Positions 2,706 through 52,803 of a DNA stretch of 64,000 nucleotides are shown here, piece by piece (the stretch's first letter is position 1; every line of letters begins with the position of its first letter). Made by a program: the position numbers and the translations under genes. Below the pieces are notes generated by a model, which worked only from the letters and a program-made list of their open reading frames with translations, had not been told where the DNA came from and searched no databases. Origin of the DNA: an uncultured Gammaproteobacteria bacterium (GTDB lineage Bacteria; Patescibacteriota; Patescibacteriia; SBBC01; CAIJZX01); NCBI GenBank assembly GCA_964349465.1, contig CAYGGC010000001.1, forward strand, positions 124,375-188,374, read 5' to 3'.

Positions 2706-2748
2706 AAAACCGTCCAGGGGTAGCGGACGGGTGAGGGGCGCTCGCAGT

Positions 2749-3303: not shown

Positions 3304-3410
3304 GCTTCCTCCGTGAAAGGTACACATCGTGGCTACCAGGGAACAGTGAACAACAACTGGCAACAGATGAAGGAGCACGATAGCATTTGACGCGGAAAAA
3401 GTCAAGATCC

Positions 3411-3439
3411 TTGAAGTTTTGCTCTGAAGTTGGTAGAAT
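3411..3439 (+). promoter_or_regulatory. Sigma70-like promoter of glyS: TTGAAG-17-TAGAAT, with the -10 hexamer ending 6 nt before the ATG (leaderless candidate).
   Basis: TTGAAG at 3411-3416 and TAGAAT at 3434-3439; ATG at 3446. Confidence 0.45.
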
Positions 3440-3445
3440 CAGCCC

Positions 3446-10825: not shown

Positions 10826-12091
10826 ATGACTACTCAGACCCTGCCGAATGGCCTGCGCGTTTTAACCGTTCCCTTACACGACACGAAGGCGGTCACTGTT
10901 TTCGTCTTTGCGAAAGTTGGCTCACGACATGAAACTCGCACCATCAATGGTATTTCCCATTTTATTGAGCACATGATGTTTAAAGGGACCAAGAAGCGAC
11001 CACAAACGGCAATCATTGCTCGTGAACTCGATGGGGTCGGCGCGGCCTATAATGCCTTTACGTCAAAAGACTGGACCGGCTATTACGTGAAGCTGACCCA
11101 CGAACGGACTGAATTGGCGCTCGACTTAGTTAGCGATATTTTACGCAACTCAACCTTCCCAAAAGCAGAAATCGAAAAAGAACGTGGCGCGGTCATCGAA
11201 GAGATCAATATGTATGACGACAATCCGATGATGTCGATCGACGATTTGTTTGAACGGCACGTCTTCGGCGATCACCCGGTCGGTTGGAATATCGCCGGCC
11301 CACGTGAGGTTATTAAGACCGTGACCCGCGAAACGATGATTACCTATCGCGATAAGTATTACCACGCCGGGAATATGCTGGTCGTCGTGGCCGGTCATTT
11401 GCCAGCCGATATCAACAAACGAATATTGCGCCATTTTGGTTCGGTCCGACGCCGAGCCTCAACGCCAACCGCGAAACCATATCTCGCGCCGAAAGCCGGG
11501 CCAGTCGTTACGGTTAAAACAAAAACCGTCGAGCAAACGCAAATTGGACTCGGGACCCGGTCCTTTTCTTACACTGACAAGCGGCAACCCGCTTTGCAAC
11601 TCCTGTCGACGATACTTGGTGGTGGTATGAGCTCCCGATTATTCATTAAGGTTCGGGAACGGCGGGGATTGTGCTATTCGATTCATTCCAGCACCAGCCC
11701 GTACGAAGATACCGGCGCGTTTATGATTCAGGCGGGCCTGGATAATCGTCGATTAGCGATCGCCCTGAAGGTGATCGTCGGCGAGCTTCGCCGTTTAAAG
11801 ACAACCCTGATTCCAGCGGCCGAGTTGCAACGCGCAAAAGATCAAATTAGTGGTCGAACGCTGATTGGTTTTGAGGATTCTGATGCGTTAGCGACGTGGT
11901 ATGGCCGGCAAGCCTTGTTTTACCCGAAAGTTTCTTCACCCGAAGAAACGTTAAAAAAGATTCAGGCGGTGACGGCGAAGGATATTCAAGCGGTCGCGAA
12001 ACAGCTCTTTACGCCCGCGAATCTTCGATTAGCGATTATCGGACCGATGAAAAACGCCGATCACTTGGCGGATATTTTGCGCCAGGTCTAG
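10826..12091 (+). CDS. M16 family zinc metallopeptidase (insulinase-like).
   Basis: HxxEH zinc motif in HFIEHMMFKGT and two-domain M16 length. Confidence 0.85.
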   Translation: MTTQTLPNGLRVLTVPLHDTKAVTVFVFAKVGSRHETRTINGISHFIEHMMFKGTKKRPQTAIIARELDGVGAAYNAFTSKDWTGYYVKLTHERTELALDLVSDILRNSTFPKAEIEKERGAVIEEINMYDDNPMMSIDDLFERHVFGDHPVGWNIAGPREVIKTVTRETMITYRDKYYHAGNMLVVVAGHLPADINKRILRHFGSVRRRASTPTAKPYLAPKAGPVVTVKTKTVEQTQIGLGTRSFSYTDKRQPALQLLSTILGGGMSSRLFIKVRERRGLCYSIHSSTSPYEDTGAFMIQAGLDNRRLAIALKVIVGELRRLKTTLIPAAELQRAKDQISGRTLIGFEDSDALATWYGRQALFYPKVSSPEETLKKIQAVTAKDIQAVAKQLFTPANLRLAIIGPMKNADHLADILRQV

Positions 12092-12131
12092 CCTGGTTGC
12101 GGAATTCGGCCATTATCGGTAGACTATCCCC

Positions 12132-13181
12132 ATGGCTCAACCCTCCACGAACGTCAATATTTCCACGACCACCATTTTTAAGGTGGTATTGATTGGTTTA
12201 GCAATTTGGTTCTTGGCGACGATTAGTCAGGTGCTGATTATCGTGTTTGTGGCTTTGGTTCTGGCGGCGGCGATCGATCCGTGGATTACCCGCCTCGAGC
12301 GGATGGGCATGGCTCGTGGTTGGGCGATGACGATTATCTTTGTTAGCGCGATGGCGCTTTTGTCGCTGATTGTTATTTTGTTCGTCCCGCTGGTCGTCGA
12401 TCAGCTCGGCAAATTTACGCAGGCCTTCCCGAAACTCTACGAACGGATATTTAGTCTCTATCAGAATAACCAAGATAGCGTCGCCCTCGACACGATTCAA
12501 AAGGGTCTCCAGAACTTGAACAGCGCCCTGTCCGACGTAACGAAAGGCGTCTTTAGCAGCGTCTTTGGATTCTTTGGCGGATTGGTTTCAGTCATCAGCG
12601 TCTTGGTCTTAACCTTCTACCTGACCCTCGAAGAAAAGGGGATGAAGCGGATTGCGGTTGATCTGGCGCCGGCAAAATATCGCCCCTATCTGATTCAGTT
12701 GTTTAATCGGGTGGAAGACCGCTTGGGTGATTGGCTTCGCGGACAGATTATTCTCGGACTCATTATCGGTATGTTGACGCTGATCGGCTTGCTCGTCTTT
12801 AAAGTCGAATTCGCGGTCGTCCTAGCATTGATTGCCGGTGTGACGGAGTTGATTCCGATCATTGGTCCGTTCATTGGTGCCATTCCGGCCGTGATTGTCG
12901 CGTTCTCTCAAGACCCAGTTCTGGCCCTGATCGTCATGGGGCTCTATATCGTTATTCAACAACTCGAAAATAACCTGATCGTGCCGCGGGTTATGTCGAA
13001 AGCGACCGGCTTGAATCCGGTGATTGTGATTGTGTCTATTCTCGTCGGTGGAAAAGTCGCGGGCATTACAGGTGTAATCCTCGCCGTCCCAACGATGATT
13101 ATCATCACGACGTTCCTCGAAGATTTCCTGGAAGAGAAAAAAGCCGATGATATGCGGCTCGAGCCAACGCCGAAAGGATAA
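12132..13181 (+). CDS. AI-2E family transporter (PerM/YhhT-like, UPF0118).
   Basis: Eight-TM profile and a conserved C-terminal region. Upstream TTGCGG-17-TAGACT with the -10 ending 6 nt before the ATG. Confidence 0.8.
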   Translation: MAQPSTNVNISTTTIFKVVLIGLAIWFLATISQVLIIVFVALVLAAAIDPWITRLERMGMARGWAMTIIFVSAMALLSLIVILFVPLVVDQLGKFTQAFPKLYERIFSLYQNNQDSVALDTIQKGLQNLNSALSDVTKGVFSSVFGFFGGLVSVISVLVLTFYLTLEEKGMKRIAVDLAPAKYRPYLIQLFNRVEDRLGDWLRGQIILGLIIGMLTLIGLLVFKVEFAVVLALIAGVTELIPIIGPFIGAIPAVIVAFSQDPVLALIVMGLYIVIQQLENNLIVPRVMSKATGLNPVIVIVSILVGGKVAGITGVILAVPTMIIITTFLEDFLEEKKADDMRLEPTPKG

Positions 13182-13192
13182 ATCCTCTCGCC

Positions 13193-13861
13193 GTGGGTAA
13201 GCTCTATATTGTCGGAACGCCAATCGGTAATTTGGAAGATCTCACGTTTCGCGCGAAACGAATATTGTCGTCGGTCAGCGTCGTTGCTTGCGAAGATACT
13301 CGCGTGACGCGGAAACTGTTATCGCACTACGAAATTGAGGTGGCGACGATTGCTGTCCACCATCACTCCACCCCAACCGAGCTCGATCGAGTTCTTGATC
13401 GGACAACTGAGGCAGACGTGGCGGTTGTGACCGACGCTGGCATGCCTGGTGTCTCGGACCCGGGCGGAAAACTCGTGGCGCGGGCCCTCGAACGAGGGAT
13501 TGCTGTCGAAACGGTACCTGGTCCAAGCGCACTCACGACGGCGACATCTCTAGCGGGCTGGGCGACGGATCAGTTTTTGTTTCTCGGATTCCTACCGCAC
13601 AAGAAAGGCCGCGAGACGCTCTTCAAGCGAATTGCCGAAACGGAAGAGTCGGTGATACTCTATGAATCGCCACATCGGATTCTTAAGACCCTTGAATCCT
13701 TATTGAGAATGATTCCCAATAGGCCGATCGCGGTTGCGCGTGAGCTGACGAAGATTCACGAGTCGGTGGTGCGTGGTACACCGGACATGGTCCTGAAACA
13801 TTTTACTGATCACCCCGATCAGGTCCGCGGTGAAATTGTTTTGATGATAGCCCCGTTATGA
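13193..13861 (+). CDS. rsmI: 16S rRNA (cytidine1402-2'-O)-methyltransferase RsmI.
   Basis: LYIVGTPIGNLEDLTFRA...ACEDTR N-terminal signature of tetrapyrrole-methylase-like RsmI. Confidence 0.85.
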   Translation: MGKLYIVGTPIGNLEDLTFRAKRILSSVSVVACEDTRVTRKLLSHYEIEVATIAVHHHSTPTELDRVLDRTTEADVAVVTDAGMPGVSDPGGKLVARALERGIAVETVPGPSALTTATSLAGWATDQFLFLGFLPHKKGRETLFKRIAETEESVILYESPHRILKTLESLLRMIPNRPIAVARELTKIHESVVRGTPDMVLKHFTDHPDQVRGEIVLMIAPL

Positions 13862-19191: not shown

Positions 19192-20253
19192 ATGGACATT
19201 GCTGTCATTGCCCTGATCGTCGTTTTACTGGCCGTTGTAGGCGTGATTTTTTCGCGTCTCTCCAGTACGACGAAAATCCTTCAGGAACTGAAAGATCAGA
19301 AGGGGAATGACCAGGCCTCGATCCTCCTGAATCAAAATATTCAAGGCCTCCAGCAACGCCTCGACTCGCAAAACCAGAATCTCCAGTCGACCCTCCAGAA
19401 GCAATTTGGAGACAGCGCGAAAATTATTCAGGATGTGACCGAGCGCCTAACGAAGCTTGATGAGACGAACCGCCAAGTCGTCGGTTTTGCCGATCAGCTC
19501 AAACGCCTCCAAGATACGCTCAACAACCCGAAACAGCGCGGCGTCCTCGGTGAATATTACCTTGAGACGGTATTAAAAAATGTTCTGCCACCGAAGAACT
19601 ATAAACTCCAGTACAAATTTAAGGACGGAGAAATTGTCGATGCGGCGATTTTCATCCAAGATAAAATTATTCCGGTCGACGCGAAATTTTCCCTCGAAAA
19701 TTATAACCGCTTAGCGGAACTGACAACCGAATCGGATCGTGAACGGGTCGAAAAAGTCTTTAAGCAGGATTTAAAGAATCGCATCGACGAAACCTCGAAG
19801 TATATTCGGCCGGGTGAGAATACGATGGACTTTGCGTTCATGTTCATTCCGGCGGAAGGGATTTATTACGATTTGCTCGTCAATAAAGTTGGCGCGGCTG
19901 GCGTTTCGTCCCGTGACCTGATCGATTACGCCTTTAAGGAAAAGCACGTCATCATTGTTTCGCCGACGTCGTTCTTCGCGTATTTGCAAACAGTGCTGCA
20001 AGGCTTACGCGCAATGCAAATCGAAGAAGGGGCGAAAGAGATTCGGAAGAACGTTGAGGTTCTGGCCAAGCATCTACAATCTTATCAAGGTTATATGGAT
20101 AAGCTTGGCAACTCTCTGAATACGTCGATGAATCACTATGGCGCCGCCCAAAAAGCCTTTGAGCGGATTGATAAAGATGTCTTAAAGATTGCCGAGGCAG
20201 AAGTATCCGAATCAAAGCTGATTGAAAACAACATGGAAAATGAGCGATCCTAA
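19192..20253 (+). CDS. rmuC: DNA recombination protein RmuC.
   Basis: N-terminal TM segment, a long coiled-coil and a conserved C-terminal RmuC domain. Confidence 0.85.
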   Translation: MDIAVIALIVVLLAVVGVIFSRLSSTTKILQELKDQKGNDQASILLNQNIQGLQQRLDSQNQNLQSTLQKQFGDSAKIIQDVTERLTKLDETNRQVVGFADQLKRLQDTLNNPKQRGVLGEYYLETVLKNVLPPKNYKLQYKFKDGEIVDAAIFIQDKIIPVDAKFSLENYNRLAELTTESDRERVEKVFKQDLKNRIDETSKYIRPGENTMDFAFMFIPAEGIYYDLLVNKVGAAGVSSRDLIDYAFKEKHVIIVSPTSFFAYLQTVLQGLRAMQIEEGAKEIRKNVEVLAKHLQSYQGYMDKLGNSLNTSMNHYGAAQKAFERIDKDVLKIAEAEVSESKLIENNMENERS

Positions 20254-20419
20254 GAAAAACGAGAGCCATGAAGAGGAGTTATTAACTGGTATTTCGTCTG
20301 CAGAATTTGAGATACAAATTAAAAAACTTGGAGAAGAGGCAAAGAAGAACCCAATATTAAAATCGCTAGGTACGGCATCAACGGAAATTCTTGAAGAAGT
20401 CCGGGAAAAGGATGAGTAA
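20240..20419 (+). CDS. Small acidic protein of 59 aa (65 aa from the 20222 ATG). It overlaps the rmuC end and the PIN-gene start. Candidate antitoxin-like partner.
   Basis: An intact ORF in 36% GC DNA with a 29-nt overlap onto the downstream PIN gene. No recognisable DNA-binding motif. Confidence 0.3.
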   Translation: MSDPKKNESHEEELLTGISSAEFEIQIKKLGEEAKKNPILKSLGTASTEILEEVREKDE

Positions 20420-20972
20420 CCTGCCATCATTAATCCTTTTAGATACGATGGCTGCGGCAGGAATTTTTTCTGATAGGCAAGAAAAACAAAAAAAGTGGGT
20501 GTCTACCATTCTACATTTGATCGCTTTTCTACCAGAAGCAGACATTACCATCCCCACACCTGTTTTTTTGGAGTTAGCGCAGTGGCATGTCAACTGGTAC
20601 AAATACGTTCAGAATATCAACCAGCCGAGTATCTCTAGCAGTCCGTTACTTAAGTACGTAAGCTATAGTATTCCTAAAAAAGTATTTTATCCGGCTGCCG
20701 CCTATAAACTTTTTTGTTCAAATAAGCAAAATAAGCCAGATGAATTTCGTAAAGAAAAGAATAAGATATCATTTATTGATTCTCTTTTAGCTTCATATTG
20801 TCTAACGTATAATTACGCTCTAGTAACGGAGAATCATAATGATTTTCCGGACAAATATTTTAGTATCGTTAAAGTTGCGACCTCTCCTGAATCAACCGGC
20901 ACAGAAAGGCGTCTACTCTTTTTGTTAAAACCTAATACCGAGGCATGGAGAAACGATTTATCAAGGATATAA
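20391..20972 (+). CDS. PIN-domain protein (VapC-like) with a ~60-aa insertion, in an AT-rich island.
   Basis: LILLDTMAA (Asp1), VFLELAQ (Glu), IDSLLASYCL (Asp3) and LVTENHNDF (Asp4). About 36% GC versus ~55% in the flanks. Confidence 0.65.
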   Translation: MKKSGKRMSNLPSLILLDTMAAAGIFSDRQEKQKKWVSTILHLIAFLPEADITIPTPVFLELAQWHVNWYKYVQNINQPSISSSPLLKYVSYSIPKKVFYPAAAYKLFCSNKQNKPDEFRKEKNKISFIDSLLASYCLTYNYALVTENHNDFPDKYFSIVKVATSPESTGTERRLLFLLKPNTEAWRNDLSRI

Positions 20973-20983
20973 CTTCGGAAAAC

Positions 20984-21014
20984 AAAAGCCGGTGTTGCGC
21001 AACACCGGCTTTGT
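20984..21014 (+). terminator. Rho-independent terminator after the PIN gene.
   Basis: GCCGGTGTTGCGCAACACCGGC followed by TTTGTG. Confidence 0.6.
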
Positions 21015-29982: not shown

Positions 29983-31056
29983 ATGTTGACTGACGTGCGT
30001 TCGCTGACCGACGGTCAGCCCGGCGCCATTCTCGGCGTTGGACATACGGAGCTAGGCGAGCAGTATCGTTTCGACAACCGACGCTTCATTCTGAATCCTG
30101 AGAAGGTTCCGGGGGCGCTGTCACCGCTTGGTCGCAGACAACTTTTCATCGACCTGTCACTTGGTGCAACGCAATCCGAAGAGGAGCTCGTTGCTCTGGC
30201 TGATCAGAAGTTTATCGCGACGACGGGTATTCGGTCGCGGTATATTTTTGACGGCCCGGTGGCCGAGCTCGCGGCTATGGCTGGTCGCCAGGCGCTACGC
30301 GCTGCGCAGGTTGAAGCGTCCGAGATTGACGCGGTCATCGTCGGATCAAATACAGGTTCGGGCTATCCAAGCACAGCCGATCGAGTCAAAGTCGCGCTCG
30401 GGATTCCGTCGACGGCGCTGAGCTTCGATGTTCAGGAGGCCTGCCCGGTTGGCGCGATCGCGGTCGAGCTAGCCTGGAAACTGATTCGTGGACGTTTCCA
30501 TCGACGCGTGCTCGTCATCGGCGCGGAGAAGGCCACGACCTTGGCTTCGCCGGACGATTACAAGGGCGCTAATCTCTTCGGGGATGCGGCCTTCGCCTTT
30601 GTCCTCGGCGCGAGTACGGCGGACGACTTCATCTTCTTCGAATCGGGTTCAGATCCGTACGACGACAAGGCGGAGTACATTACCCGAACGAAGGATGGTT
30701 TTTCTCAGAACGGTCGGGCGGTGCACAAGTATGTCGGAACCGTCATCCCTGACTTGCTCGGACGAACCTTCGAACGGTTACGGCTTGACCCGGCGACGGT
30801 TCATCACTTCTTCCCGCATCAGCCGTCGGCCAAGACCCTCGACTTCCTTGTCGACAACCTCAAAGGGCGCTGGCCGACCTTTAACCCGGTGATCCACCGG
30901 AACGTCGAAGAGATGGGCAACACTTCTGGGGCCTGCACCGGCTGGATGATCTCACGGGCCAAGGCGCAGGGGCAGCTCAAGCCGGGCGAGTTCTGCCTCG
31001 TTGCGACCTTCGGGTCGGGGATGAGTTGGGGCCTGTATGGGTTCATTGTTCGGTAA
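29983..31056 (+). CDS. 3-oxoacyl-ACP synthase III (FabH)-like / KAS III family condensing enzyme.
   Basis: Cys-His-Asn triad contexts: VQEACPVGA, HHFFPHQPSAKTL and NVEEMGNTSGA. Atypical N-terminal insertion. Confidence 0.75.
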   Translation: MLTDVRSLTDGQPGAILGVGHTELGEQYRFDNRRFILNPEKVPGALSPLGRRQLFIDLSLGATQSEEELVALADQKFIATTGIRSRYIFDGPVAELAAMAGRQALRAAQVEASEIDAVIVGSNTGSGYPSTADRVKVALGIPSTALSFDVQEACPVGAIAVELAWKLIRGRFHRRVLVIGAEKATTLASPDDYKGANLFGDAAFAFVLGASTADDFIFFESGSDPYDDKAEYITRTKDGFSQNGRAVHKYVGTVIPDLLGRTFERLRLDPATVHHFFPHQPSAKTLDFLVDNLKGRWPTFNPVIHRNVEEMGNTSGACTGWMISRAKAQGQLKPGEFCLVATFGSGMSWGLYGFIVR

Positions 31057-34307: not shown

Positions 34308-34316
34308 GAAAAATTG

Positions 34317-34390
34317 AGTTGGCGGCAGGATGTGAACCTACGACCAGAAGATTTCAAGTCTTGTGCTCTACCGGGTTGAGCTACGCCAGC
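34317..34390 (-). tRNA. tRNA-like gene of 74 nt, cloverleaf, anticodon loop CUUGAAA (anticodon UGA by position) with a short variable arm. Atypical. Identity uncertain.
   Basis: Acceptor GCUGGCG/CGCCAAC (one C·A mismatch), D-arm GCUC-AACCCGGUA-GAGC, T-arm GUAGG-UUCACAU-CCUGC. It begins 16 nt after a TTGACA-16-TAGAGT promoter. Confidence 0.45.
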
Positions 34391-34405
34391 GAAAAGAACT
34401 TTGCT

Positions 34406-34433
34406 ACTCTAGCAAATTCAAAATTCTTGTCAA
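34406..34433 (-). promoter_or_regulatory. Promoter TTTTTTCTTGACA-16-TAGAGT driving the tRNA-like pair.
   Basis: The reverse complement of 34428-34433 is TTGACA, preceded by a T-tract (UP-like). -10 TAGAGT at rc 34406-34411. Confidence 0.5.
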
Positions 34434-34465
34434 GAAAAAACCACTTCATGAGAAGCGGTCGTTTA

Positions 34466-34597
34466 GCGGAGGGGAACGGGTAGGGTTTGAACCTACTCTT
34501 TCGAAATGTACTCGAACGCTTTGTGTTGGTTCTCTCCTTCCAACCCAGGGGCTGAGCCTCCCCAGGCTCAGCCCGTAGCGATAAGCTACCGCCCCCC
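34466..34597 (-). ncRNA. Structured tRNA-like RNA of ~130 nt of unknown class. A 5' G-run pairs with the 3' end next to a canonical T-arm, and the interior has four hairpins.
   Basis: 5' GGGGGGCGG pairs with 3' CCGUUCCCC. GUAGG-UUCAAAC-CCUAC T-arm. 10-bp perfect hairpin GGGCUGAGCC/GGCUCAGCCC. Hairpin loop AAGGAGAGAA. Confidence 0.4.
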
Positions 34598-34609
34598 AAC
34601 CTGATCGAT

Positions 34610-34644
34610 AACTTAATAATGGTCCAACCGAAAGCCAATGTCAA
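34610..34644 (-). promoter_or_regulatory. Second copy of the TTTTTTCTTGACA promoter motif, driving the 130-nt RNA.
   Basis: The identical 13-mer TTTTTTCTTGACA is on the minus strand at 34639-34651. The -10 is an approximate TATTAA. Confidence 0.4.
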
Positions 34645-34662
34645 GAAAAAACTCCCGGGCCG

Positions 34663-35211
34663 TTACTCGGCGGGAGCGTGTTTGAGGTCGAAGCCCAGCG
34701 TGACCTCTTTCGCGTAGCCCGGTAGGTCCTCGAGGACCATGACGTCGGCCTGTGACTTCATGATCGGCAAGCCGCGGCCGCGGAGCTTATGAACGTCCTG
34801 CTGGTCTGGACGAGGGATCTTCCGGCTGGCCGGGAAGAGCGGCGTGCCGACTTCAACAACGTTGAAGACCCTGATCGTGCATCGTCGGTTGGAACCGATC
34901 CCAACCACGATGCAGCTCACTTGCACGTCCGATCCCGGTCGACAGTGTTGACCGGCATTGGTCAACGCTTCGCACGCGCAGTCGCTGACCCAGTGGACGA
35001 AGTTCCACGGCAGACGGTTGACGTCGAGCAGGTAGGCCTCGAGCAAGGGCATGATCAGCCCGGGAGTCGCTGCAGAACCGGCACAGCGCCAAGCTTCGCC
35101 GCTACTTTCGACCGTTCCACCAGACGCGATCGGCCACCGGGTGACCTGGCCTTTGATGATACGCTGCAGTACTGGGGTTCCATCAGGAATGTGCACGTGG
35201 GGCGTCGCCAT
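34663..35211 (-). CDS. RsbW/SpoIIAB-like GHKL ATPase (anti-sigma-factor-type serine kinase).
   Basis: VSDCACEALTNAGQHC (N-box-like) and GRGLPIMKSQADVMVL (G-box-like). ATG at 35211 with an AAAGGAGG RBS 8 nt upstream; the track's GTG at 35220 is too close to that RBS. Confidence 0.5.
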   Translation of the reverse strand: MATPHVHIPDGTPVLQRIIKGQVTRWPIASGGTVESSGEAWRCAGSAATPGLIMPLLEAYLLDVNRLPWNFVHWVSDCACEALTNAGQHCRPGSDVQVSCIVVGIGSNRRCTIRVFNVVEVGTPLFPASRKIPRPDQQDVHKLRGRGLPIMKSQADVMVLEDLPGYAKEVTLGFDLKHAPAE

Positions 35212-35322
35212 GAGATCCACCTCCTTTGGGCGATTGGGAAAGGACTGCTTCCTCTTCCTCTGGTCTACTCCCGCCCTCGACGGTTGTCAAGCGGATAAAA
35301 AATCAGTATAATCTCGAAGCCT

Positions 35323-40235: not shown

Positions 40236-40505
40236 CGGCTGAAACTCGGGCCAGTTCCTGATCGGGTACTTGATCAGCGACCGGCTCCTCGTTGGCAGTC
40301 CTTGGCGGAGTAGTCCCATCCGTGGGAGCGTGCTGCTGCTGCGGTCGTTTGTTGGGCACGACGCTCCCTCCTTGTATCTGAAAGTACGAAACGGCTCGGA
40401 AATGAGCTGCCGAAACCTAGCAAAAATACAGGTTTTTGTCAAGATTCCGATGCTTGTCGATACTCGGCCTTTTATGCTATCCTTAGCGTATTCTTGATGA
40501 TTTGA

Positions 40506-45067: not shown

Positions 45068-46033
45068 ATGGAAAGTTTAGCCTGGCTCGCGGTGCTTGTA
45101 CCGCTCCTCGGTGTGGCGATGGTGGTGGTGTTTATCGTGGCGATTGTCCAAGAGGGAAAGGCGGAACGGCGCGGTGGCTTTAAGCAAGCCTTCTTTACGA
45201 TGGTGACACTGGTCATGCTCGGAATTTCAGTCGGTGCGACGATTGGATTGCTCAATACTACCATGCGGAATGTGATTTTCCGTGGTGAAGGGAATACAAA
45301 TCGTTTCAACGCTCCGCCGTATTTATACTTACCGAGCGCCCCAAGCGTTGCGACTCCTGAGGGGGTCAAGTCCTCCGTGGCTCCAACGATTGCTCCGTAT
45401 ACATGTGCTTCTGAGTGCCAATTTTCTGCAGATGATAAAGCCGCGGTGAAAAGCTGGAAAGCCGAATATAAGCGGTGGCAAACAAATAGCACTGTAAGCT
45501 ATGCATATCGTCGCGATTTAGCGGTTATCTTGCCGTTCTTGATCGTCGCACTGCCGCTGTTCTTCGTTTTTTTCCGATTGATGCAAAAAGGCGCGGTTAT
45601 CGAATTGACAGAAACGAAAAAACTCAGCCCGATCCGATCACTGTATTTCTACTTTATTGCCTTCTCTGGATTATTGGTCGCGGTGATTGGCGCCGGCGGT
45701 CTCGTCAATCTTGGACTGAATCAAGCCTTACGAGTCAATGAAGCAGATATTCAAACAGTCCCTGCATTATCGCTTGACACCGTAACGGTAAAAAATATTA
45801 TTACCTGCGCGACAGCCTGTGACTTCACGACTGATGACGTAGCGATGGCTGAACGATGGGTGACGGACGCTGAAAAGTTCTCAACCGAGCAAACACTTTC
45901 AAAGGGAAAAATTGGTAGCGACCTATCAAATTTCTTGCCCTTACTCTTAATCGGTTTCCCATTATTCTGGTTCCACTTCAACCGTATTCGCAAAGAAACT
46001 CAAGACCATCAATCAACACCGGCCACTTCATAA
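45068..46033 (+). CDS. Hypothetical membrane protein with an internal tandem duplication, inserted between rplK and rplA.
   Basis: Two repeats, each TM...C-x-x/A-C-x-F-[ST]-x-DD-x-A...W...KF...TM (YTCASECQFSADDKAAV versus ITCATACDFTTDDVAMA). Confidence 0.55.
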   Translation: MESLAWLAVLVPLLGVAMVVVFIVAIVQEGKAERRGGFKQAFFTMVTLVMLGISVGATIGLLNTTMRNVIFRGEGNTNRFNAPPYLYLPSAPSVATPEGVKSSVAPTIAPYTCASECQFSADDKAAVKSWKAEYKRWQTNSTVSYAYRRDLAVILPFLIVALPLFFVFFRLMQKGAVIELTETKKLSPIRSLYFYFIAFSGLLVAVIGAGGLVNLGLNQALRVNEADIQTVPALSLDTVTVKNIITCATACDFTTDDVAMAERWVTDAEKFSTEQTLSKGKIGSDLSNFLPLLLIGFPLFWFHFNRIRKETQDHQSTPATS

Positions 46034-46091: not shown

Positions 46092-46769
46092 ATGCACAGT
46101 AAACGATACCAGGCAGCGAAAACCTTAGTCGAAGTCGGGAAGACCTACACGTTGACCGAGGCCGTTGCCTTGGCGAAACAAACTGCCTCGACGAAGTTTG
46201 ATGGCAGTATTGAAATCCATCTTCGTCTCGGGATTGACCCGACGAAGGGTGATCAAGCCGTCCGCGGCACGGTTGAACTTCCGCACGGGTCCGGGAAGAA
46301 GGTTCGTGTGGCCGTGATTGCGAAAGGTCCGGCGGCAAAAGCCGCAAAGGATGCGGGCGCTGATATCGTGGGTGACGATGATTTGATTGCTGAGATTAAG
46401 AAGAACGAAAGCATTGCGGCTGATGTCGTGATTGCTACGCCAGATATGATGAAACTGCTCGCGCCGGTGGCCAAAATCCTAGGGACCAAAGGCCTGATGC
46501 CGAACCCGAAGAACGAGACGGTGACCGCCGACCCAGGCAAAGCCGTGGCGGCCTGGCAGAAAGGGAAAGTCCCGTTCCGCTCGGATAACACGGCCAACGT
46601 TCACGCGATTATCGGCAAGCCAAGTTTTTCACCAGAGCAACTTGAGGCTAATATTACCGCTTTCATGGAGGCGGTAAAAAAAGTGAAGCCAACAACCATG
46701 AAAGGTACCTATATAAAGTCGATCACCATGGCCGCCTCGATGGGGCCAGGAATCAAAGTCACGGTCTAA
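46092..46769 (+). CDS. rplA: 50S ribosomal protein L1.
   Basis: Conserved L1 sequence. Confidence 0.95.
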   Translation: MHSKRYQAAKTLVEVGKTYTLTEAVALAKQTASTKFDGSIEIHLRLGIDPTKGDQAVRGTVELPHGSGKKVRVAVIAKGPAAKAAKDAGADIVGDDDLIAEIKKNESIAADVVIATPDMMKLLAPVAKILGTKGLMPNPKNETVTADPGKAVAAWQKGKVPFRSDNTANVHAIIGKPSFSPEQLEANITAFMEAVKKVKPTTMKGTYIKSITMAASMGPGIKVTV

Positions 46770-46791
46770 CCTGCTGACATCTGATGATACA

Positions 46792-46821
46792 ACGCCCCGC
46801 CTTTGGCGGGGCGTTGTTGTT
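46792..46821 (+). terminator. Rho-independent terminator after rplA.
   Basis: ACGCCCCGCCtttgGCGGGGCGT followed by TGTTGTT. Confidence 0.65.
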
Positions 46822-46890
46822 AGTGTTGACGAACTAGGATTGAAAGCGTAAGATCAGCCCGATTTGCCCTTTCCTAAAGGAGGTACCCAG

Positions 46891-47574
46891 GTGCAGAACC
46901 ACCATCGTCGACGCGGTAAGATCCGCGGTTTTGCCGGCAATATGGGCTCTGGCAAGACCAGCCGGTTGATCGGCGTGGCCTACGAGCCGAGCAAGCAGGC
47001 GAGCGGAGTCATCTTTCTTCAGCCGCCCGAAGCGAATCGAGCGGACACCAAGACCCGAGTCGAGTCACGCATCCACGCCCGGTACGAAGGAGCGATTCCG
47101 GTCACGACGCCGGCCGACATTGCTCGGGAAGTGCGGGCCACGCGGGCGCGCAACATCTTCCTCGAAGAGATTCAGTTCTTCGGGAAGGATGAAGCGATGA
47201 TCAACGAGTTTCAGAAGCTGATGCTCGAGTTGCGTGACGAGGGCTACAACATCTACTGGTCGGGTTTGCCGCTCGATTTCCGCGGCGACCCGTTCGAGGT
47301 GGTCGCCTTCATGATGGCCTTGTCGGGGGTCCTCGAGATGCTCCAGGTCGAGTGCGCGCATTGCCAAGCGGTACCGGCGCCCTTGCCCCAGCGGCTCGAG
47401 TTCAACCAGCCGGTGCCGCACGGTCACCCGCGGTTTCTGGCTGACACCTCTGAACACAACAACGCCGGGATCACCTACGAACCGCGCTGCGAAGGCTGCC
47501 ACATCGTTCTCGATGACTGGAACACTCATTCACGAGCGATTCACGACGCCCTCCAGGCGCAGAAGCCGGCCTAA
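46891..47574 (+). CDS. tdk: Thymidine kinase.
   Basis: GNMGSGKTS P-loop and C-terminal Zn ribbon CAHC...CEGC. GTG start with AAAGGAGG 7 nt upstream (the track's TTG at 46864 is unlikely). Promoter TTGACG-17-TAAGAT. Confidence 0.8.
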   Translation: MQNHHRRRGKIRGFAGNMGSGKTSRLIGVAYEPSKQASGVIFLQPPEANRADTKTRVESRIHARYEGAIPVTTPADIAREVRATRARNIFLEEIQFFGKDEAMINEFQKLMLELRDEGYNIYWSGLPLDFRGDPFEVVAFMMALSGVLEMLQVECAHCQAVPAPLPQRLEFNQPVPHGHPRFLADTSEHNNAGITYEPRCEGCHIVLDDWNTHSRAIHDALQAQKPA

Positions 47575-47610
47575 CAACTCTCATAGCAATGGGAGTTTTT
47601 TCTTGCCTTG

Positions 47611-47651
47611 CCCAGCCCCACTTTTTTGTTAAGGAAAAAAGTGGGGCTGGG
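47611..47651. terminator. 17-bp perfect hairpin with an A/T loop (bidirectional terminator or attenuator) between tdk and tmk.
   Basis: CCCAGCCCCACTTTTTTgttaaggAAAAAAGTGGGGCTGGG. Confidence 0.5.
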
Positions 47652-47751
47652 CTTGCCGATGGTTTTGGGGTGTGATAGAGTCATCCGGCCAAGAAACTGG
47701 AGGGCTTGGTGACAAGCCCTTTGACAATCACGTCAAACCCACGGAGGAACT

Positions 47752-48378
47752 ATGCCCGAAGGGAATTTCATCGTCTTTTCCGGCGGCGAGGGGAGCGGAA
47801 AAACAACCGCGCTCGATCGACTGAAGGAAGAGTATCCACATCTCATTACGACTCGCGAACCTGGAGGGACAGAGTTCGGGCAGCGCCTGCGCCACATGCT
47901 CGTCAATGAGCCGGAGCGCGATGCGGCCACTGAGCTACTTCTCTTCTTCACCGATCGGGCTCATCACGTCCAGACGGTCATCCGACCGGCGCTGGCGGCT
48001 CATGAGACGATCATCTCCGACCGCTACTGGATGGACTCGTTTGCCTACCAGTGGTGGGGGCGGATGGGTATTCGCGACCAGAATACCTACCCGAATTTCG
48101 GCAACCTGTTCTGGCCGTTCCATTTCCCGACGCCACGGGCCTGGCTCTGGTTCGATGTCCAGCCGGAAATCGGGCTGGCGCGGAAGGCGGTGGCCACGGA
48201 TCGTAATCGCCTTGATGATTTGCCGGTGGATTTTCACCAGCAGGTCAGGGCGGGATTCGAGTATCTGTTCGAACACTGTCTGAATGAAGAAACCAGTCAC
48301 CGGATCGACGCCAACCAGTCTCCGGATAACGTCTACGCGAGCGTCAAAGCGGCGCTCAAACCGTACCTGCGTGCCTAG
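47752..48378 (+). CDS. tmk: Thymidylate (dTMP) kinase.
   Basis: FSGGEGSGKTT P-loop and REPGGT. Own promoter TTGCCG-17-TAGAGT. The 5'-UTR carries TTTGACaatcacGTCAAA. Confidence 0.85.
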   Translation: MPEGNFIVFSGGEGSGKTTALDRLKEEYPHLITTREPGGTEFGQRLRHMLVNEPERDAATELLLFFTDRAHHVQTVIRPALAAHETIISDRYWMDSFAYQWWGRMGIRDQNTYPNFGNLFWPFHFPTPRAWLWFDVQPEIGLARKAVATDRNRLDDLPVDFHQQVRAGFEYLFEHCLNEETSHRIDANQSPDNVYASVKAALKPYLRA

Positions 48379-48386
48379 GAGGGAAG

Positions 48387-49298
48387 ATGATCACGACGAA
48401 GGGGACGGAACTCCCGATCCTGGATCTGGATGGTTTTCCGGCCATTCACGTCCCGGTCCTTCAGACTGCGGCTGGAACGCCGTATCTGCGCGAACCGGGC
48501 GTGGCTTTGCTCGCCAAGCCGGATGTCAGCCTGGCTGGGATGCAGGGTTTCCTCGAGGGCTACGATCCGAACTTCAAGTTCGAGGAGTATCTCAACGATC
48601 CTGACATCTTGCCCCCCGCGGAGACGCTGCTCAAGGCGGCTGGCCAGACCTGCTACGCGAGCTGGGGTCCGGGACGTTCCTGGAACAAGGATGCGGCCAA
48701 GTATCTCGATCACATCAAGTCGTCGGGACACGGCTCGGTTCTCGAGCACGCCAACTTCTCGTTCCTGCTCTACGGCATTTCCCGCAGCAATTCCCACGAA
48801 GGGGTTCGCCATCGGGCCGGCACGGCCTTCTCGCAGCTGAGCCAGCGCTACGTCTCGGGCCGGGTTCTGCGGTTCGTCGAGCGGCCGTCTTACGTCGCGA
48901 GCGAGAAGCTCCACGCGCGCTTCGAGCGCCGGATCGACTTCCTGGCCAAGGAGTACGCGGAGATCAGTGAAGAGCTCTACGCCATGCAGGCGGCGGGTGA
49001 GAATGCGATCCTGTCGGCCGATCAGAAGACCGATCTGCGCAAGAAGGTCCAGCAGGAAGCGCGTTCGGTTCTCCCGAACGAGACGGAGACCGTCATGGTC
49101 CTGACCGGCAACGTGCGGTCGTGGCGACACATGATCGAGATGCGCGCCAACGGGGGCGCTGAAGTGGAGATTCGGGGCACCTTCTACCGGCTCTTCCACT
49201 GCCTGAAGCTGGTCGCGCCGTTGCTCTTCAACGACTACGAGATCGTCCAGCAGCCGGACGGCACCTGCGTCGTGGCGACGCCGTATCGCAAGGTGTAG
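48387..49298 (+). CDS. thyX: FAD-dependent thymidylate synthase ThyX.
   Basis: ThyX motif EGVRHRAGTAFSQLSQRY (RHRxxxxxS). Confidence 0.85.
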   Translation: MITTKGTELPILDLDGFPAIHVPVLQTAAGTPYLREPGVALLAKPDVSLAGMQGFLEGYDPNFKFEEYLNDPDILPPAETLLKAAGQTCYASWGPGRSWNKDAAKYLDHIKSSGHGSVLEHANFSFLLYGISRSNSHEGVRHRAGTAFSQLSQRYVSGRVLRFVERPSYVASEKLHARFERRIDFLAKEYAEISEELYAMQAAGENAILSADQKTDLRKKVQQEARSVLPNETETVMVLTGNVRSWRHMIEMRANGGAEVEIRGTFYRLFHCLKLVAPLLFNDYEIVQQPDGTCVVATPYRKV

Positions 49299-49300
49299 CC

Positions 49301-49528
49301 ATGTTCCTGACCTGCAAGGAAGCTCGCCGGATCGTCCGACGGTTTCGCAAGGGCGATCGTCCACGTCCCGTAGTGCACCTCATTTTCCGGGCCTCGGCTC
49401 ATGTCGATAACTGTGGGTGTGAATTCTGCTCGGCCGTTGTGGTCGAGATGGAGCGTGCACCCCAGCCGACGCCCGACGTTCTGTCCTTTCCGGCGCACCG
49501 CGCACCAACCGTTTCCACGGCCCGTTGA
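49301..49528 (+). CDS. Small Cys/His-containing hypothetical protein of 75 aa.
   Basis: HVDNCGCEFC cluster. Same high-GC composition as the island. Followed by a terminator. Confidence 0.3.
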   Translation: MFLTCKEARRIVRRFRKGDRPRPVVHLIFRASAHVDNCGCEFCSAVVVEMERAPQPTPDVLSFPAHRAPTVSTAR

Positions 49529-49550
49529 AGTCTGACGGGCCTTTTTTCTT
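49519..49550 (+). terminator. Rho-independent terminator.
   Basis: GGCCCGTtgaagtctgACGGGCC followed by TTTTTTC. Confidence 0.6.
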
Positions 49551-49579
49551 TGCTAAAACTCTGGTAAACTACGCCTACT

Positions 49580-51061
49580 ATGGAACTTGAAGCAGTCATC
49601 GGTCTGGAAGTCCACGTCCAGCTGAAAACGAAGTCAAAAATGTTCTGTCGCTGCGATAATCGCGACGACCAGCCGCCGAATTCCGCGATCTGTCCGGTTT
49701 GTTCAGGTCAGCCGGGGGCGTTGCCGGTGCCGAATGCGCAAGCGATCGACTGGGCGGTAAAAACCTCCTTAGCCCTCGGCTGTGCGATCAATCAGGAATC
49801 GAAATTTGATCGCAAAAACTATTTCTATCCGGACCTCCCAAAGGGATATCAGATTAGCCAGTACGACAAACCATTTGGCCATGACGGAACTCTGACCTTC
49901 CCAGTTGCTGGTGTCCCAACCACCATTCGTATCAATCGTCTCCATCTGGAAGAAGACGCCGGGAAGTTGATGCATTCCGGAAGCGCCACACTGGTTGATC
50001 TGAATCGTTCCGGAACTCCGCTGTGTGAAATTGTGAGCGAGCCAGATTTTCGCACCCCAGCTCAAGCGAAGGCCTACCTGGAAGAGATGCAGCTGATCAT
50101 GCGCTACCTTGGTGTGTCCGATGCGGATATGGAAAAGGGGCATTTGCGTTGCGATGCGAATATTTCCTTGCGCCCGGTTGGCGAAGAGAAGCTCTATCCG
50201 AAAACGGAAATTAAAAACCTGAATTCGTTTCGTTCGGTTGAGCGGGCCTTGCAGTATGAAATTGACCGCCAGACGAAACTTTGGAACGCGGGAACTCCGG
50301 TTATGCAGCAGTCGACGCGTGGCTGGGATGATGGTGGACAAAAAACGACCGACCAGCGCGCAAAAGAAGATGCGGCTGACTATCGTTACTTCCCGGAGCC
50401 AGACCTTCCACCGGTTATGATTTCCGATGATCATCTGGCTCGACTTCTCGCGGAAGTTCCAGAATTGCCAGCCGCGCGGCGTGAACGGTTTATGGACATG
50501 TATCGTCTGACCACAACGCAAGCGGATGGATTGGTAGCGGAAAAAACCCTAGCGAACTACTTCGAAGAAGTTGTTTCGGAATTCCGTGATTATGCGGAAA
50601 CTGAAATTGGGGCCGACAAAGCGAGTGCCCTGTGGGAAGCCGAAAAGGGGAAAGAGACCGCAGTTATCGCGAACTGGCTCCTGAACCGCATTTCAGGCGA
50701 ACGGCGGGCCGCTGAAGGCCTTCCTGTGCCAGCGGTTGACCTTGGTCGACTCCTGTGGATGGTTCATCAGAATGTGATTAATATTCCCTCAGCCGTCCAG
50801 GTGTACGATCACATGATTGCTACGAAAAAAGGACCGCATCAACTTGTGAAAGATCTCGGCCTCGAGCAAGTCAGCGATACCGGCGAACTCGAAAAAATCC
50901 TCCAGGAGATTATCGCTGCCAATGAAAATGTCGTCGCCGAAGTGAAAAGTGGTAAGGCCCCAGCCGCCCAGTTCCTCGTTGGGCAAGCAATGAAAGCGAC
51001 GAAAGGTAAAGCGAACCCACAGATGATTCAGGAGCTATTAAAGAAGCTCTTAGGGACGTAG
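49580..51061 (+). CDS. gatB: Asp-tRNA(Asn)/Glu-tRNA(Gln) amidotransferase subunit B.
   Basis: Conserved N-terminus (IGLEVHVQLKTKSKMFCRC). No gatA or gatC in the window. Confidence 0.9.
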   Translation: MELEAVIGLEVHVQLKTKSKMFCRCDNRDDQPPNSAICPVCSGQPGALPVPNAQAIDWAVKTSLALGCAINQESKFDRKNYFYPDLPKGYQISQYDKPFGHDGTLTFPVAGVPTTIRINRLHLEEDAGKLMHSGSATLVDLNRSGTPLCEIVSEPDFRTPAQAKAYLEEMQLIMRYLGVSDADMEKGHLRCDANISLRPVGEEKLYPKTEIKNLNSFRSVERALQYEIDRQTKLWNAGTPVMQQSTRGWDDGGQKTTDQRAKEDAADYRYFPEPDLPPVMISDDHLARLLAEVPELPAARRERFMDMYRLTTTQADGLVAEKTLANYFEEVVSEFRDYAETEIGADKASALWEAEKGKETAVIANWLLNRISGERRAAEGLPVPAVDLGRLLWMVHQNVINIPSAVQVYDHMIATKKGPHQLVKDLGLEQVSDTGELEKILQEIIAANENVVAEVKSGKAPAAQFLVGQAMKATKGKANPQMIQELLKKLLGT

Positions 51062-51975: not shown

Positions 51976-52803
51976 TTATTGTAAGTAGTTCAGCAGTTCA
52001 GTGAGCTTGTTGATGCGTCGGACTGATCGAGGTAATCGTTGCGGGGCCCAGCCTTGACCGCCAATCACGAGCAGTGTCTTAGTTGGGCAGGCGGCGATAA
52101 ATTTTTGTAGATAGTCGCGGTTCACTCGTTGCGCATAGGTGTTCGTGATGCTCACCATAGCCGGTTGCAGGTCCTTTGTCGCTCGAAGGAGCTCCTCGAC
52201 TGGGGTATTTGCGCCGAGGATTTCTCGCTGGTACCCGCATTGCTTAAAGATCAACGCAGCCATTTGTAGCGGGAGTTCATGGAAGTCGCCGCGGACGCAG
52301 GCCATGATGACTTTCGGTGGACGCGACTGGTTTGGTTCGGGGATGAGATTTTCAAGCCGAAGCAGGTCTTGGCGGATGCGAAAACTCATGCGGTGCTCTT
52401 CAACAATTGTCAGACTTCCTTGGGACCAGAGGTCGCCAATCATCCGTAAGGTTGGAGCGATAATATCCTCCAGAATCGTAACCAAAGGAGTTCCGGTTAC
52501 GTACTTATGTTCAATCAAATCTGTCGCTTCGATATCACGATGATCCCGAAGGAGCAGAAAATATGAACCCGGACCTTCAATCGGGACTACTTCGCGTTTC
52601 AATCGCTTCAGGACATAGGACCGAGGAGCGAGATGCGGAAACCGTTGTATAAATACATCAAGCTGTTTTCGGCTCGTCCGACGATGCCCCCCAGGCGTGA
52701 CCGATGAGGGGATAATACTTTTATCAATCCAACGCTTGATGGTCGAGACATTAACGTCAAAAAGGCGGGCTAGTTGGGGCGGACTAAAATGCACGTTTTG
52801 CAT
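51976..52803 (-). CDS. MerR-family HTH regulator with a C-terminal cobalamin-binding domain (CarH/LitR-like).
   Basis: N-terminal HTH (PPQLARLFDVNVSTIKRWI). C-terminal Rossmann-like B12 domain (VIMACVRGDFHEL...VSITN...VIGGQG). The DxHxxG motif is degenerate (the G is a P). Confidence 0.55.
   Translation of the reverse strand: MQNVHFSPPQLARLFDVNVSTIKRWIDKSIIPSSVTPGGHRRTSRKQLDVFIQRFPHLAPRSYVLKRLKREVVPIEGPGSYFLLLRDHRDIEATDLIEHKYVTGTPLVTILEDIIAPTLRMIGDLWSQGSLTIVEEHRMSFRIRQDLLRLENLIPEPNQSRPPKVIMACVRGDFHELPLQMAALIFKQCGYQREILGANTPVEELLRATKDLQPAMVSITNTYAQRVNRDYLQKFIAACPTKTLLVIGGQGWAPQRLPRSVRRINKLTELLNYLQ

Follow-up and report, generated by a model that had tools for sequence, protein, structure and literature searches.

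A thymidylate-pathway slot between rplA and gatB in a candidate phyla radiation-type genome, with apparent in-place exchange of its genes

The contig CAYGGC010000001.1 contributes the 64-kb window considered here, a term that refers throughout to the whole stretch of DNA that was analysed. Within it, four open reading frames (ORFs) on the + strand lie between rplA (46092-46769) and gatB (49580-51061), namely tdk, tmk, thyX and an ORF of 75 amino acids (aa). The initial annotation had described this set of genes for the synthesis of deoxythymidine monophosphate (dTMP) as a GC-rich island resembling phage-derived or horizontally acquired nucleotide-metabolism modules. As a whole, that observation was confirmed, and its interpretation was only partly supported. 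Identical contigs (L001, L002) were assembled independently from the two runs ERR3094302 and ERR3094292, and the arrangement in the window is therefore not an assembly artefact. Numbers with the prefix L designate metagenome contigs of relatives and comparators, many of them only 1-4 kb long. The genes and signals of the locus are as follows.

46789..46817, + strand: intrinsic terminator of rplA, the left border of the slot; 13-bp stem with a T-rich tail, the stem kept in L007, L098, L102 and L093.
46826..46854, + strand: predicted promoter P1 of tdk, TTGACG-17-TAAGAT, the only sigma-70-like site above the scan threshold.
46891..47574, + strand: tdk, predicted divergent TK1-type thymidine kinase, 227 aa, GTG start (Pfam TK and PDB profile matches).
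47576..47603, + strand: terminator T1 after tdk; 9-bp stem (47576-47597) plus T6.
47607..47655, no strand assigned: palindromic insertion of 41 nt (47611-47651) with 17-bp arms and a 7-nt loop, flanked by CTTG repeats (47607-10 and 47652-55).
47653..47681, + strand: predicted promoter P2 of tmk-thyX-small ORF, TTGCCG-17-(TGa)TAGAGT, read from the sequence and conserved.
47701..47727, + strand: conserved leader element, a hairpin AGGGCTTG-gtga-CAAGCCCT (47701-47720) followed by the invariant CCCTTTGACAA.
47720..47737, + strand: inverted repeat TTTGAC-N6-GTCAAA (TTTGACaatcacGTCAAA) before the Shine-Dalgarno (SD) sequence GGAGG (47743-47747); window and L098.
47752..48378, + strand: tmk, dTMP kinase, 208 aa (TIGR00041, Pfam Thymidylate_kin).
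48387..49298, + strand: thyX, flavin-dependent thymidylate synthase, 303 aa (TIGR02170, Pfam Thy1, RHR...SQLSQRY).
49301..49528, + strand: small Cys/His protein, 75 aa, starting 2 nt past the thyX stop and kept in relatives.
49519..49551, + strand: terminator T2, which overlaps the small ORF at its end and closes the slot on the right; 9-bp stem (49519-49541) plus a T-run, kept in L003.

On the + strand, Pfam and NCBIfam profiles identify in succession a thymidine kinase (TK), a dTMP kinase and ThyX, and the contiguity of the three enzymes with a small Cys protein is thereby upheld. Tmk scores 119.6 bits against the TIGR00041 equivalog (cut-off 83.25), with the P-loop GGEGSGKTT and the motif SDRYW in its translation. 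ThyX reaches 125.6 bits against the TIGR02170 equivalog (cut-off 87.9) and 145.3 bits against Pfam Thy1 (cut-off 24.8). The signature of the ThyX family is defined as RHR-x7/8-S(Q)xSxR, and it is present in the translation as VRHRAGTAFSQLSQRY. The tmk-thyX gap measures 8 nt and the gap between thyX and the small ORF 2 nt. An antisense ORF of 329 aa over thyX is an artefact of the high GC content at third codon positions (GC3). No thyA, folA, dut or dcd gene was found elsewhere in the 64-kb window.

Tdk is judged from its sequence to be a divergent member of the TK1-type kinases, with a substrate range that is likewise a prediction. It matches Pfam TK (PF00265) at 53.9 bits (gathering score 20.6) and falls below all of the TK equivalog cut-offs of NCBIfam, the best being NF003296 at 82 bits against a cut-off of 183. 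Profile matches to the PDB thymidine kinases 8y7w, 3e2i and 1xx6 lie at E ~1e-23, and the alignment to 8y7w, the only one shown residue by residue, covers the full length and brings the P-loop GNMGSGKTS, FLEEIQFF, CAHC and CEGC into register. Tdk thus shares with the TK1-type kinases (8y7w, 3e2i, 1xx6, 2ja1) the P-loop, the catalytic acidic pair and the zinc-binding Cys pairs of the lasso domain, but is very divergent from them and carries about 30 extra C-terminal residues. Its start is the GTG at 46891, 7 nt past the SD sequence AAGGAGG (46877-46883); L007 has a TAG directly upstream of this GTG, and the TTG at 46864 was rejected as a start. An exhaustive search recovered 12 Tdk-like representatives at E<1e-30 among 1.84 billion, amounting to about a dozen clusters at 50% identity, and a word-index search returned five matches each for Tdk and for the small protein. 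By the word-index search for both, and by the exhaustive search for Tdk, the two proteins are essentially without relatives outside the clade of the window; a scan of JGI metagenomes with the Tdk profile likewise gave no match.

The position of these genes is informative, for the same gap carries other deoxynucleotide genes in distant relatives. Relatives for the slot survey were taken from an RplA scan of genome contigs, with RplA at most 56% identical among the matches listed. Among species representatives, RplA and NusG find their best matches in metagenome-assembled genomes (MAGs) titled Falkowbacteria, Uhrbacteria, Peribacteria, Gracilibacteria and 'Patescibacteria group', a part of which evidently bear a mistaken Gammaproteobacteria label. 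Among the matches listed, distant relatives (NusG 71-83% identical) keep the gene order nusG-rplK-rplA ... gatB-miaA. The slot of L014 contains DHFR, ThyA, dCTP deaminase, dCMP deaminase, a deoxynucleoside monophosphate (dNMP) kinase and a Tmk-dUTPase fusion, and the slots of L015, L020, L021, L025, L026 and L063 hold sets similar to this one. In L045, a Falkowbacteria MAG, the slot (11829-13706) encodes a 625-aa fusion of a dCMP deaminase and a Thy1 (ThyX) domain, and in L016 it encodes a membrane protein only. In all of the distant relatives surveyed (L014-L016, L020, L021, L025, L026, L045, L063) gatB comes next after the slot, and among the matches listed none of their slots contains tdk or a ThyX of the window type. 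Because genes of deoxynucleoside triphosphate (dNTP) metabolism occupy the same gap in these relatives, the rplA-gatB gap is a conserved slot for the dTMP pathway, in which the clade of the window uses a different gene set.

Within that clade, the block of tdk, tmk, thyX and the small ORF stands at the same site in all members recovered (L007, L098, L099/L100, L102-L105, L003 and L093). Their distance from the window varies. RplA is 92-98% identical in L007, L098 and L102-L105, and in L099/L100, which cover only tdk to gatB, Tdk is 99% and GatB 97% identical. GatB is 91% identical in L003, and in L093 the corresponding values are 68% for RplA and 72% for GatB. The proposal that a foreign island was inserted into the rplA-gatB gap, which would have predicted absence of the block from this site in relatives, is accordingly not supported, since the block is present clade-wide down to 68% RplA identity and the gaps of distant members of the candidate phyla radiation (CPR) hold other dNTP genes. 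In L093, two tmk paralogues (1940-2590 and 2733-3353) and two paralogues of the small ORF (4333-4515 and 4534-4770) are found; one tmk copy has a host-like GC3 of 0.55 and lies behind a duplicated promoter without the leader hairpin, and the other has a GC3 of 0.70 and lies behind the conserved leader.

Although their positions are fixed, the slot genes differ far more between close lineages than their flanks do. The flanks of clade members are 92-99% identical in protein, against about 50% for Tmk and, in one lineage, 62% for Tdk. Between the window and L007, RplA and Tdk are 97-98% identical and Tmk 48-50%. Between the window and L099, Tmk is 50% and the small ORF 64% identical, and the 303-aa ThyX of the window is replaced by an unrelated tandem type of 540 aa, to which BLAST finds only 34% identity over 50 residues. 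DNA identity between these two falls from 98-100% at 47136-47255 to 43-60% across tmk and is about 100% again at 49779-49958. The Tmk of L098 is a third allele, 51% identical to that of the window and 60% to type B; the assignment of L098 to the window-type cassette on the grounds of its leader was rejected for this reason. In L102, RplA is 92% identical to the window but Tdk only the 62% given above; this Tdk stands closer to L093, at 75% identity. A mosaic is also seen between tdk and tmk, where the window shares its proximal leader with L007 and its distal leader with L098. Nearly identical flanks enclose at least three alleles of Tmk and two types each of Tdk and ThyX, the ThyX types being unrelated.

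ThyX also departs from the relatedness of the hosts. The window ThyX is 59-65% identical to 118 homologues from outside the clade, the named ones being Actinomycetota or Rubrobacter, and 73% identical to the ThyX of L003, but only 49% to that of L093 at the same position. In a neighbour-joining (NJ) tree, a crude one, the window and L003 group in 100/100 bootstrap replicates and the window, L003 and L093 in 0/100. Phylogenies of ThyX, Tmk and Tdk had been called for at the outset; judged by identity discordances in all three and by such crude trees, the genes are incongruent with their hosts. The Actinomycetota-type thyX loci examined (60-71% GC) carry thyX alone, without tdk, tmk or the small ORF. 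An unrelated contig, L101 (46.6% GC, with an EF-Ts of 152 aa), contains at 5196-7892 a dcd-(85-aa ORF)-tmk-thyX operon with a ThyX 62% identical to that of the window and a host-like GC content. This type of ThyX therefore circulates in low-GC lineages as well as in Actinomycetota, and its exchange between phyla is evident from these comparisons. It resembles the homotetrameric ThyX of actinobacteria (M. tuberculosis Rv2754c; Rubrobacter and other Actinomycetota) in its Thy1 domain, the RHR...SQLSQRY signature, a length of about 300 aa, an N-terminal extension and the 59-65% identity. Unlike the actinobacterial loci, where thyX stands alone, the window gene lies in a 52%-GC, CPR-like genome and is predicted to be co-transcribed with tmk and the small protein gene.

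The discordance between flanks and slot argues for replacement of alleles or cassettes by recombination, and by these sequence comparisons the slot genes appear to have been exchanged within the clade in that form. Identity decays gradually in the flanks of the slot, which indicates homologous recombination; the likely mechanism would be one anchored in the conserved flanks and in P2 and the leader. Taken together, we favour a fixed-slot thymidylate locus shaped by in-place displacement and repeated recombinational exchange, with no single island or phage, and assign this reading a probability of roughly 0.65. By established enzymology, the TK1-type kinase would convert salvaged thymidine or deoxyuridine to dTMP or dUMP, ThyX would form dTMP from dUMP without DHFR, and Tmk would carry dTMP to dTDP. 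In the slot, tdk and thyX would stand for the dCMP and dCTP deaminases, dUTPase, and ThyA plus DHFR of the relatives, a putative non-orthologous displacement in place. The horizontal origin first proposed is thus retained as horizontal or recombinational exchange, given the 59-65% identity of ThyX to Actinomycetota and Rubrobacter sequences against 49% to L093 and the discordant flanks, and its phage component is not.

Two known kinds of system are comparable. The passage on ThyA and ThyX in PMC5954106 (citing Stern et al. 2010) describes a sporadic distribution, frequent lateral transfer and non-homologous displacement, and PMC12455944 reports that thyA has been transferred into Patescibacteria. 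As in those cases, ThyA plus DHFR in the relatives corresponds to ThyX in the clade, ThyX similarity is incongruent with organismal relatedness, and two unrelated ThyX types alternate. The present case differs in that displacement occurs in place, in one chromosomal slot, and in that Tmk and Tdk alleles are exchanged as well. Switching at capsule and O-antigen loci likewise places divergent or non-homologous cassettes between conserved flanks, with identity decaying towards the cassette. In contrast to those loci, the cassettes here consist of core nucleotide-metabolism enzymes and not of surface structures, and no selective agent is evident.

Several points weigh against the fixed-slot reading. 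Every comparator is a metagenome contig, and many span only 1-4 kb. L099 and L100 stem from the same assembly and are 100% identical, so the distal flanks of type B rest on one contig that could be a strain chimera; the discordances of L007 and L102 are independent of it. The flank DNA of the L007 and L102 lineages has itself diverged by about 12-20%. Tmk may have evolved faster rather than been replaced; N- and C-terminal patches of the gene still align in DNA. The L101 ThyX, 62% identical and of host-like composition in a 46.6%-GC genome, would leave the donor and the direction of ThyX transfer ambiguous. The NJ tree is crude, and the assignment of the host to the CPR is an inferred one, drawn from best matches.

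The composition of the block is what first suggested an import. The GC content is 60.4% in the stretch 46826-49550 and 52.2% in the remaining sequence, which confirms the deviation. No segment of 2725 bp has a higher value (mean 52.4%, standard deviation 2.5), and the stretch lies 3.2 standard deviations above the mean. The figure of about 62% originally given holds for the gene bodies (59-63%) and is slightly high for the block as a whole; its distinctness from the flanks stands. GC3 is 0.836 in thyX, 0.789 in tdk, 0.718 in tmk and 0.658 in the small ORF, compared with 0.584 +/- 0.064 for 44 other genes, which corresponds to z-scores of 2-4 (up to 3.9). Nearly all of the excess falls on third codon positions, and it is synonymous; GC content at the first and second positions (GC1 and GC2) is ordinary.

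A single, fairly recent island from a high-GC donor such as Actinomycetota, bringing a full salvage-plus-de novo dTMP module into the rplA-gatB gap, would account for this composition and for the 59-65% identity of ThyX to Actinomycetota- and Rubrobacter-labelled sequences. It is also compatible with the GC1/GC2/GC3 of the window ThyX (0.63/0.42/0.84), which match those of the ThyX of a genome of about 60% GC (0.64/0.45/0.83; L094/L095); the ordinary GC1 and GC2 were for that reason dropped as an argument excluding an actinobacterial donor. Throughout the clade, however, the slot genes stably retain an elevated GC3. It measures 0.64-0.84 in the slot genes of the window, L007, L003, L093 and L099, the long ThyX included, against 0.51-0.62 in rplA and gatB, and it is equally high in L093, where identity to the window at 4-fold degenerate sites (0.34-0.43) is saturated. 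An excess that persists despite saturated synonymous sites is therefore not the trace of one recent import. The presence of the block at one site throughout the clade, the use of the gap for dNTP genes in distant relatives, the lack of close homologues of Tdk and the small protein outside the clade, and the solitary thyX of Actinomycetota-type loci all tell against such an event as well. Nor do the borders of the block show an integrase, a tRNA or direct repeats; the window has a single tRNA, at 34316-34390. A single island is thus unlikely. Under the fixed-slot reading, the most likely source of the high GC3 is recurrent acquisition from donors of higher GC content, GC-biased conversion where recombination is frequent, or both.

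Purely vertical inheritance, with the high GC3 and low identities arising from local peculiarities such as GC-biased conversion or relaxed constraint and without any replacement, agrees with the clade-wide synteny and the stable GC3 excess, and the Tmk alleles do share the clade motifs WLWFDV and RIDANQS..VYASVKAAL. It is nevertheless distinctly unlikely. The 303-aa and tandem 540-aa ThyX proteins, at 34% identity over 50 aa, are not allelic descendants of one gene, the Tdk of L102 is placed with its counterpart in distant L093 and not with those of its RplA neighbours, and the window ThyX is nearer to ThyX proteins from outside the clade than to that of L093. The mosaic leader points the same way.

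The signals around the genes define two predicted transcription units, the first comprising P1, tdk and T1, and the second P2, the leader hairpin, tmk, thyX, the 75-aa protein gene and T2. That the block is bracketed by terminators was confirmed at 46789-46817 and 49519-49541, and a third terminator was found after tdk (47576-47597), with all nine pairs kept in four distinct sequences and a stem reshaped yet maintained in L102. Contigs L004, L005 and L006, from three independent assemblies, end 37-38 nt past the rplA stop, inside the terminator palindrome. Population heterogeneity at the border of the slot was rejected as the cause, as the ends fall within the terminator inverted repeat; they probably mark an assembler break at that repeat and not a biological boundary. 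The P1 hexamers are kept in five other lineages with a diverged spacer (compared in L007, L098, L102 and L093, the last with TAAGCT). P2 had been proposed as a TTGCCG-17-TAGAGT promoter. It falls below the consensus scan threshold, but both of its hexamers are conserved in six lineages (window, L007, L098, L099, L102 and L093) as TTGCCG/TTGCGG/TTGACG-17-TAGAGT/TAGGGT with a TG extension, and a promoter function is predicted on this basis.

Between T1 and P2 lies a hairpin that had been reported as a perfect 17-bp stem at 47611-47651. These coordinates are exactly those of an inserted element; the stem itself has 18 bp (47610-47627 / 47635-47652, 7-nt loop), its 18th pair being contributed by the duplicated target. 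It is the longest perfect hairpin in the 64-kb window and occurs there in a single copy. The junction in the window reads CCTTG-[CCCAGCCCCACTTTTTT GTTAAGG AAAAAAGTGGGGCTGGG]-CTTGCCGA, with the 4-bp CTTG duplicated, and in L007, L098 and L102 the empty site reads ...CCTTGCCGA..., the palindrome being precisely absent. L099 carries a variant copy with two compensatory changes in the arms. At a second locus, upstream of gyrB, a palindrome CCCAGCCCCACTTTTT-loop-AAAAAGTGGGGCTGGG occurs at 4699-4739 of L004 and 3222-3262 of L005, flanked by duplicated TCAA, and the window is empty at the matching site (40430-40450). No match to the exact palindrome was found in the JGI metagenome scan or in the viral scan. 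The body is an inverted repeat, the orthologous sites are filled in some lineages and empty in others, and the target is duplicated, as expected of elements such as miniature inverted-repeat transposable elements (MITEs) or repetitive extragenic palindromic (REP) sequences. As far as sequence comparison can tell, the hairpin behaves as a small mobile palindrome inserted between T1 and P2. Like REP, bacterial interspersed mosaic (BIME) and MITE-like elements, it is intergenic, forms a perfect inverted repeat with short direct repeats on either side, is present or absent at orthologous sites and has a second site of insertion; it differs in being only 41 nt long with two known sites, and was set against described families by Rfam only. 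No associated transposase of the RAYT/IS200-like kind was found, although no search aimed at one was made. An integron or attC-like cassette site was also considered for the hairpin and rejected, there being no integrase, the hairpin being absent from lineages that differ in their cassettes, and identity decaying gradually.

Downstream of P2, the leader hairpin and CCCTTTGACAA recur in all clade loci with sequence across the junction, even in distant L093, where they lie upstream of tmk2 and the stem is longer. This conservation was established by an exact-motif search, MAFFT having misaligned the one distant sequence, L093, and the other four being too similar for a covariance model. The closing apical pair of the hairpin covaries, G-C becoming A-T, and the loop is variable. 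Rfam gave no match for the leader at gathering scores and only chance hairpin matches at E<=1. These features suggest a candidate regulatory or stabilising 5' structure. The TTGAC palindrome noted before the ribosome-binding site is indeed present at 47720-47737 as TTTGACaatcacGTCAAA, its left half shared with the invariant leader motif, but it is conserved in that register in only two of four distinct sequences. Only L098 retains the right half; L099 has TTGAC-N4-GTCAA and L007 is degenerate. Over the alignment, 60% of cells are paired. The chance of a 6-bp inverted repeat in a leader of about 100 nt is, by our own estimate, about 0.2; its significance is weak, and alone it does not exceed chance.

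Regulation of tmk-thyX by the 18-bp hairpin, as an attenuator or terminator, together with the TTGAC palindrome, as an operator or translational hairpin, might be argued from the stability of the intergenic fold (-81.9 kcal/mol, z = -5.2), from the compensatory arm changes between the window and L099 copies, and from the palindrome, which abuts the SD sequence and recurs in L098 and, with a 4-nt spacer, in L099. This proposal is given little credence. The hairpin lies upstream of the P2 -35 hexamer and therefore outside the tmk mRNA, and having no T-run it does not qualify as an intrinsic terminator. It is also polymorphic, being absent from L007, L098 and L102, which retain the operon signals, and a copy resides at an unrelated locus in L004 and L005. 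At the tdk-tmk site the mobile palindrome is probably neutral. For the TTGAC repeat, the incomplete pairing (only 60% of cells), the variable spacing and a length of 6 bp that is not unexpected by chance weigh in the same direction.

A phage-derived or prophage-remnant nucleotide module, as had been suggested, is very improbable: nucleotide-metabolism genes (TK, Tmk, ThyX) are common in phages and the PHROG families for all three match, but as family membership only, whereas the best GenBank phage matches by tblastn reach no more than 36.5% identity for ThyX, 30% for Tdk and 36% for Tmk, far below cellular homologues, IMG/VR scans with the Tdk profile and with ThyX gave nothing, no structural, integrase or lysis gene occurs among the annotated ORFs of the window (part of the 64 kb being annotated), and the block is flanked by housekeeping rplA, gatB and miaA. 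Membership in a defence system was rejected too, PADLOC returning only weak P-loop matches.

The small protein at the end of the second unit is represented by only five homologues and conserved in five lineages, with invariant C5 and H34-x3-C38-x-C40-x2-C43. Its ORF follows thyX in the slot in all four contexts read (window, L003, L099/L100 and L093), the fifth homologue being on the P0140 contig, and it does so with both ThyX types. An Arg-rich first helix is followed by further helices, for a total of three in the AlphaFold2 model (pLDDT 85-91 for residues 1-45), and by a disordered tail with a conserved PQPxPEVLxFP. No family match was obtained, Pfam giving none at E<=10. A zinc-binding anti-sigma factor (ZAS/zf-HC2) such as RsiW (PDB 5wuq) was considered and not adopted, as neither Pfam zf-HC2 nor a ZAS chain in the PDB profile search appeared at E<=10; the operon, tmk-thyX-small ORF followed by a terminator and gatB, contains no cognate extracytoplasmic function (ECF) sigma factor. 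The protein may bind zinc and serve as a helical partner or regulator with a link to ThyX. A more far-reaching proposal, which we regard as rather doubtful, makes the gap a dedicated recombination hot spot that swaps thymidylate cassettes between co-occurring strains under diversifying pressure on dTMP metabolism, and joins the Arg-rich Cys/His mini-protein, the leader hairpin and CCCUUUGACAA into a new zinc- or redox-sensitive module for thyX autoregulation. If it were true, that pressure might come, for example, from phage- or host-derived inhibitors or from a changing nucleoside supply.

Other features of the window were recorded in passing. On the other side of rplA, a gene at 45068-46033 (+) between rplK and rplA encodes a 321-aa DUF5671 membrane protein with an internal duplication, seen as two C..C.F..DD...W motifs. 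It is hypervariable, with 59-71% aa identity where NusG, RplK and RplA are 92-98% identical. In several distant relatives rplK adjoins rplA directly, with a gap of 77-170 nt (L013, L014, L016, L021); in others the gap is 450-570 nt (L020, L025, L033, L063). Near miaA, a gene at 51976-52803 (-) encodes a MerR/helix-turn-helix protein with a B12-binding domain, a CarH-like architecture that is unusual for a small CPR-type genome. A FabH/KAS III-like ORF at 29983-31056 (+) has 59.7% GC and a GC3 of 0.69, above its neighbours, and at 34316-35220 (-) the sole tRNA of the window, a tRNA-Ser UGA (34316-34390), adjoins a 185-aa ORF with a GC3 of 0.74 and a weak match to HATPase_c_2 (anti-sigma kinase-like) below the Pfam cut-off. 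Lower GC contents are found at 20001-21000 (39.4%), where a 193-aa ORF at 20391-20972 (+) with 37.3% GC and no Pfam match has the most deviant codon usage of the window and is followed by a perfect 14-bp palindrome (20985-21012). A second such stretch, at 3000-5000 (45-47%), includes two small minus-strand ORFs (3480-3800 and 4090-4422) of 41-43% GC, also without a Pfam match.

The locus offers a caution that a GC-rich block need not be a recent foreign island. It also contributes three small items, namely a family of ThyX-linked Cys/His mini-proteins, a conserved tmk/thyX leader motif and a 41-nt mobile palindrome. As a further instance of the documented displacement between ThyA and ThyX, here resolved to one slot, it leaves current concepts unchanged. 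To our knowledge, members of the CPR/Patescibacteria cannot make nucleotides de novo, and securing dTTP is therefore central to their dependent lifestyle. On the reading favoured here, a single slot beside rplA holds the dTMP pathway across the group, and its content would have been rewired from deaminases, dUTPase, ThyA and DHFR to Tdk and ThyX and would still be exchanged between close lineages. The locus would thus be a clean case, drawn from nature, of non-orthologous displacement observed in place.

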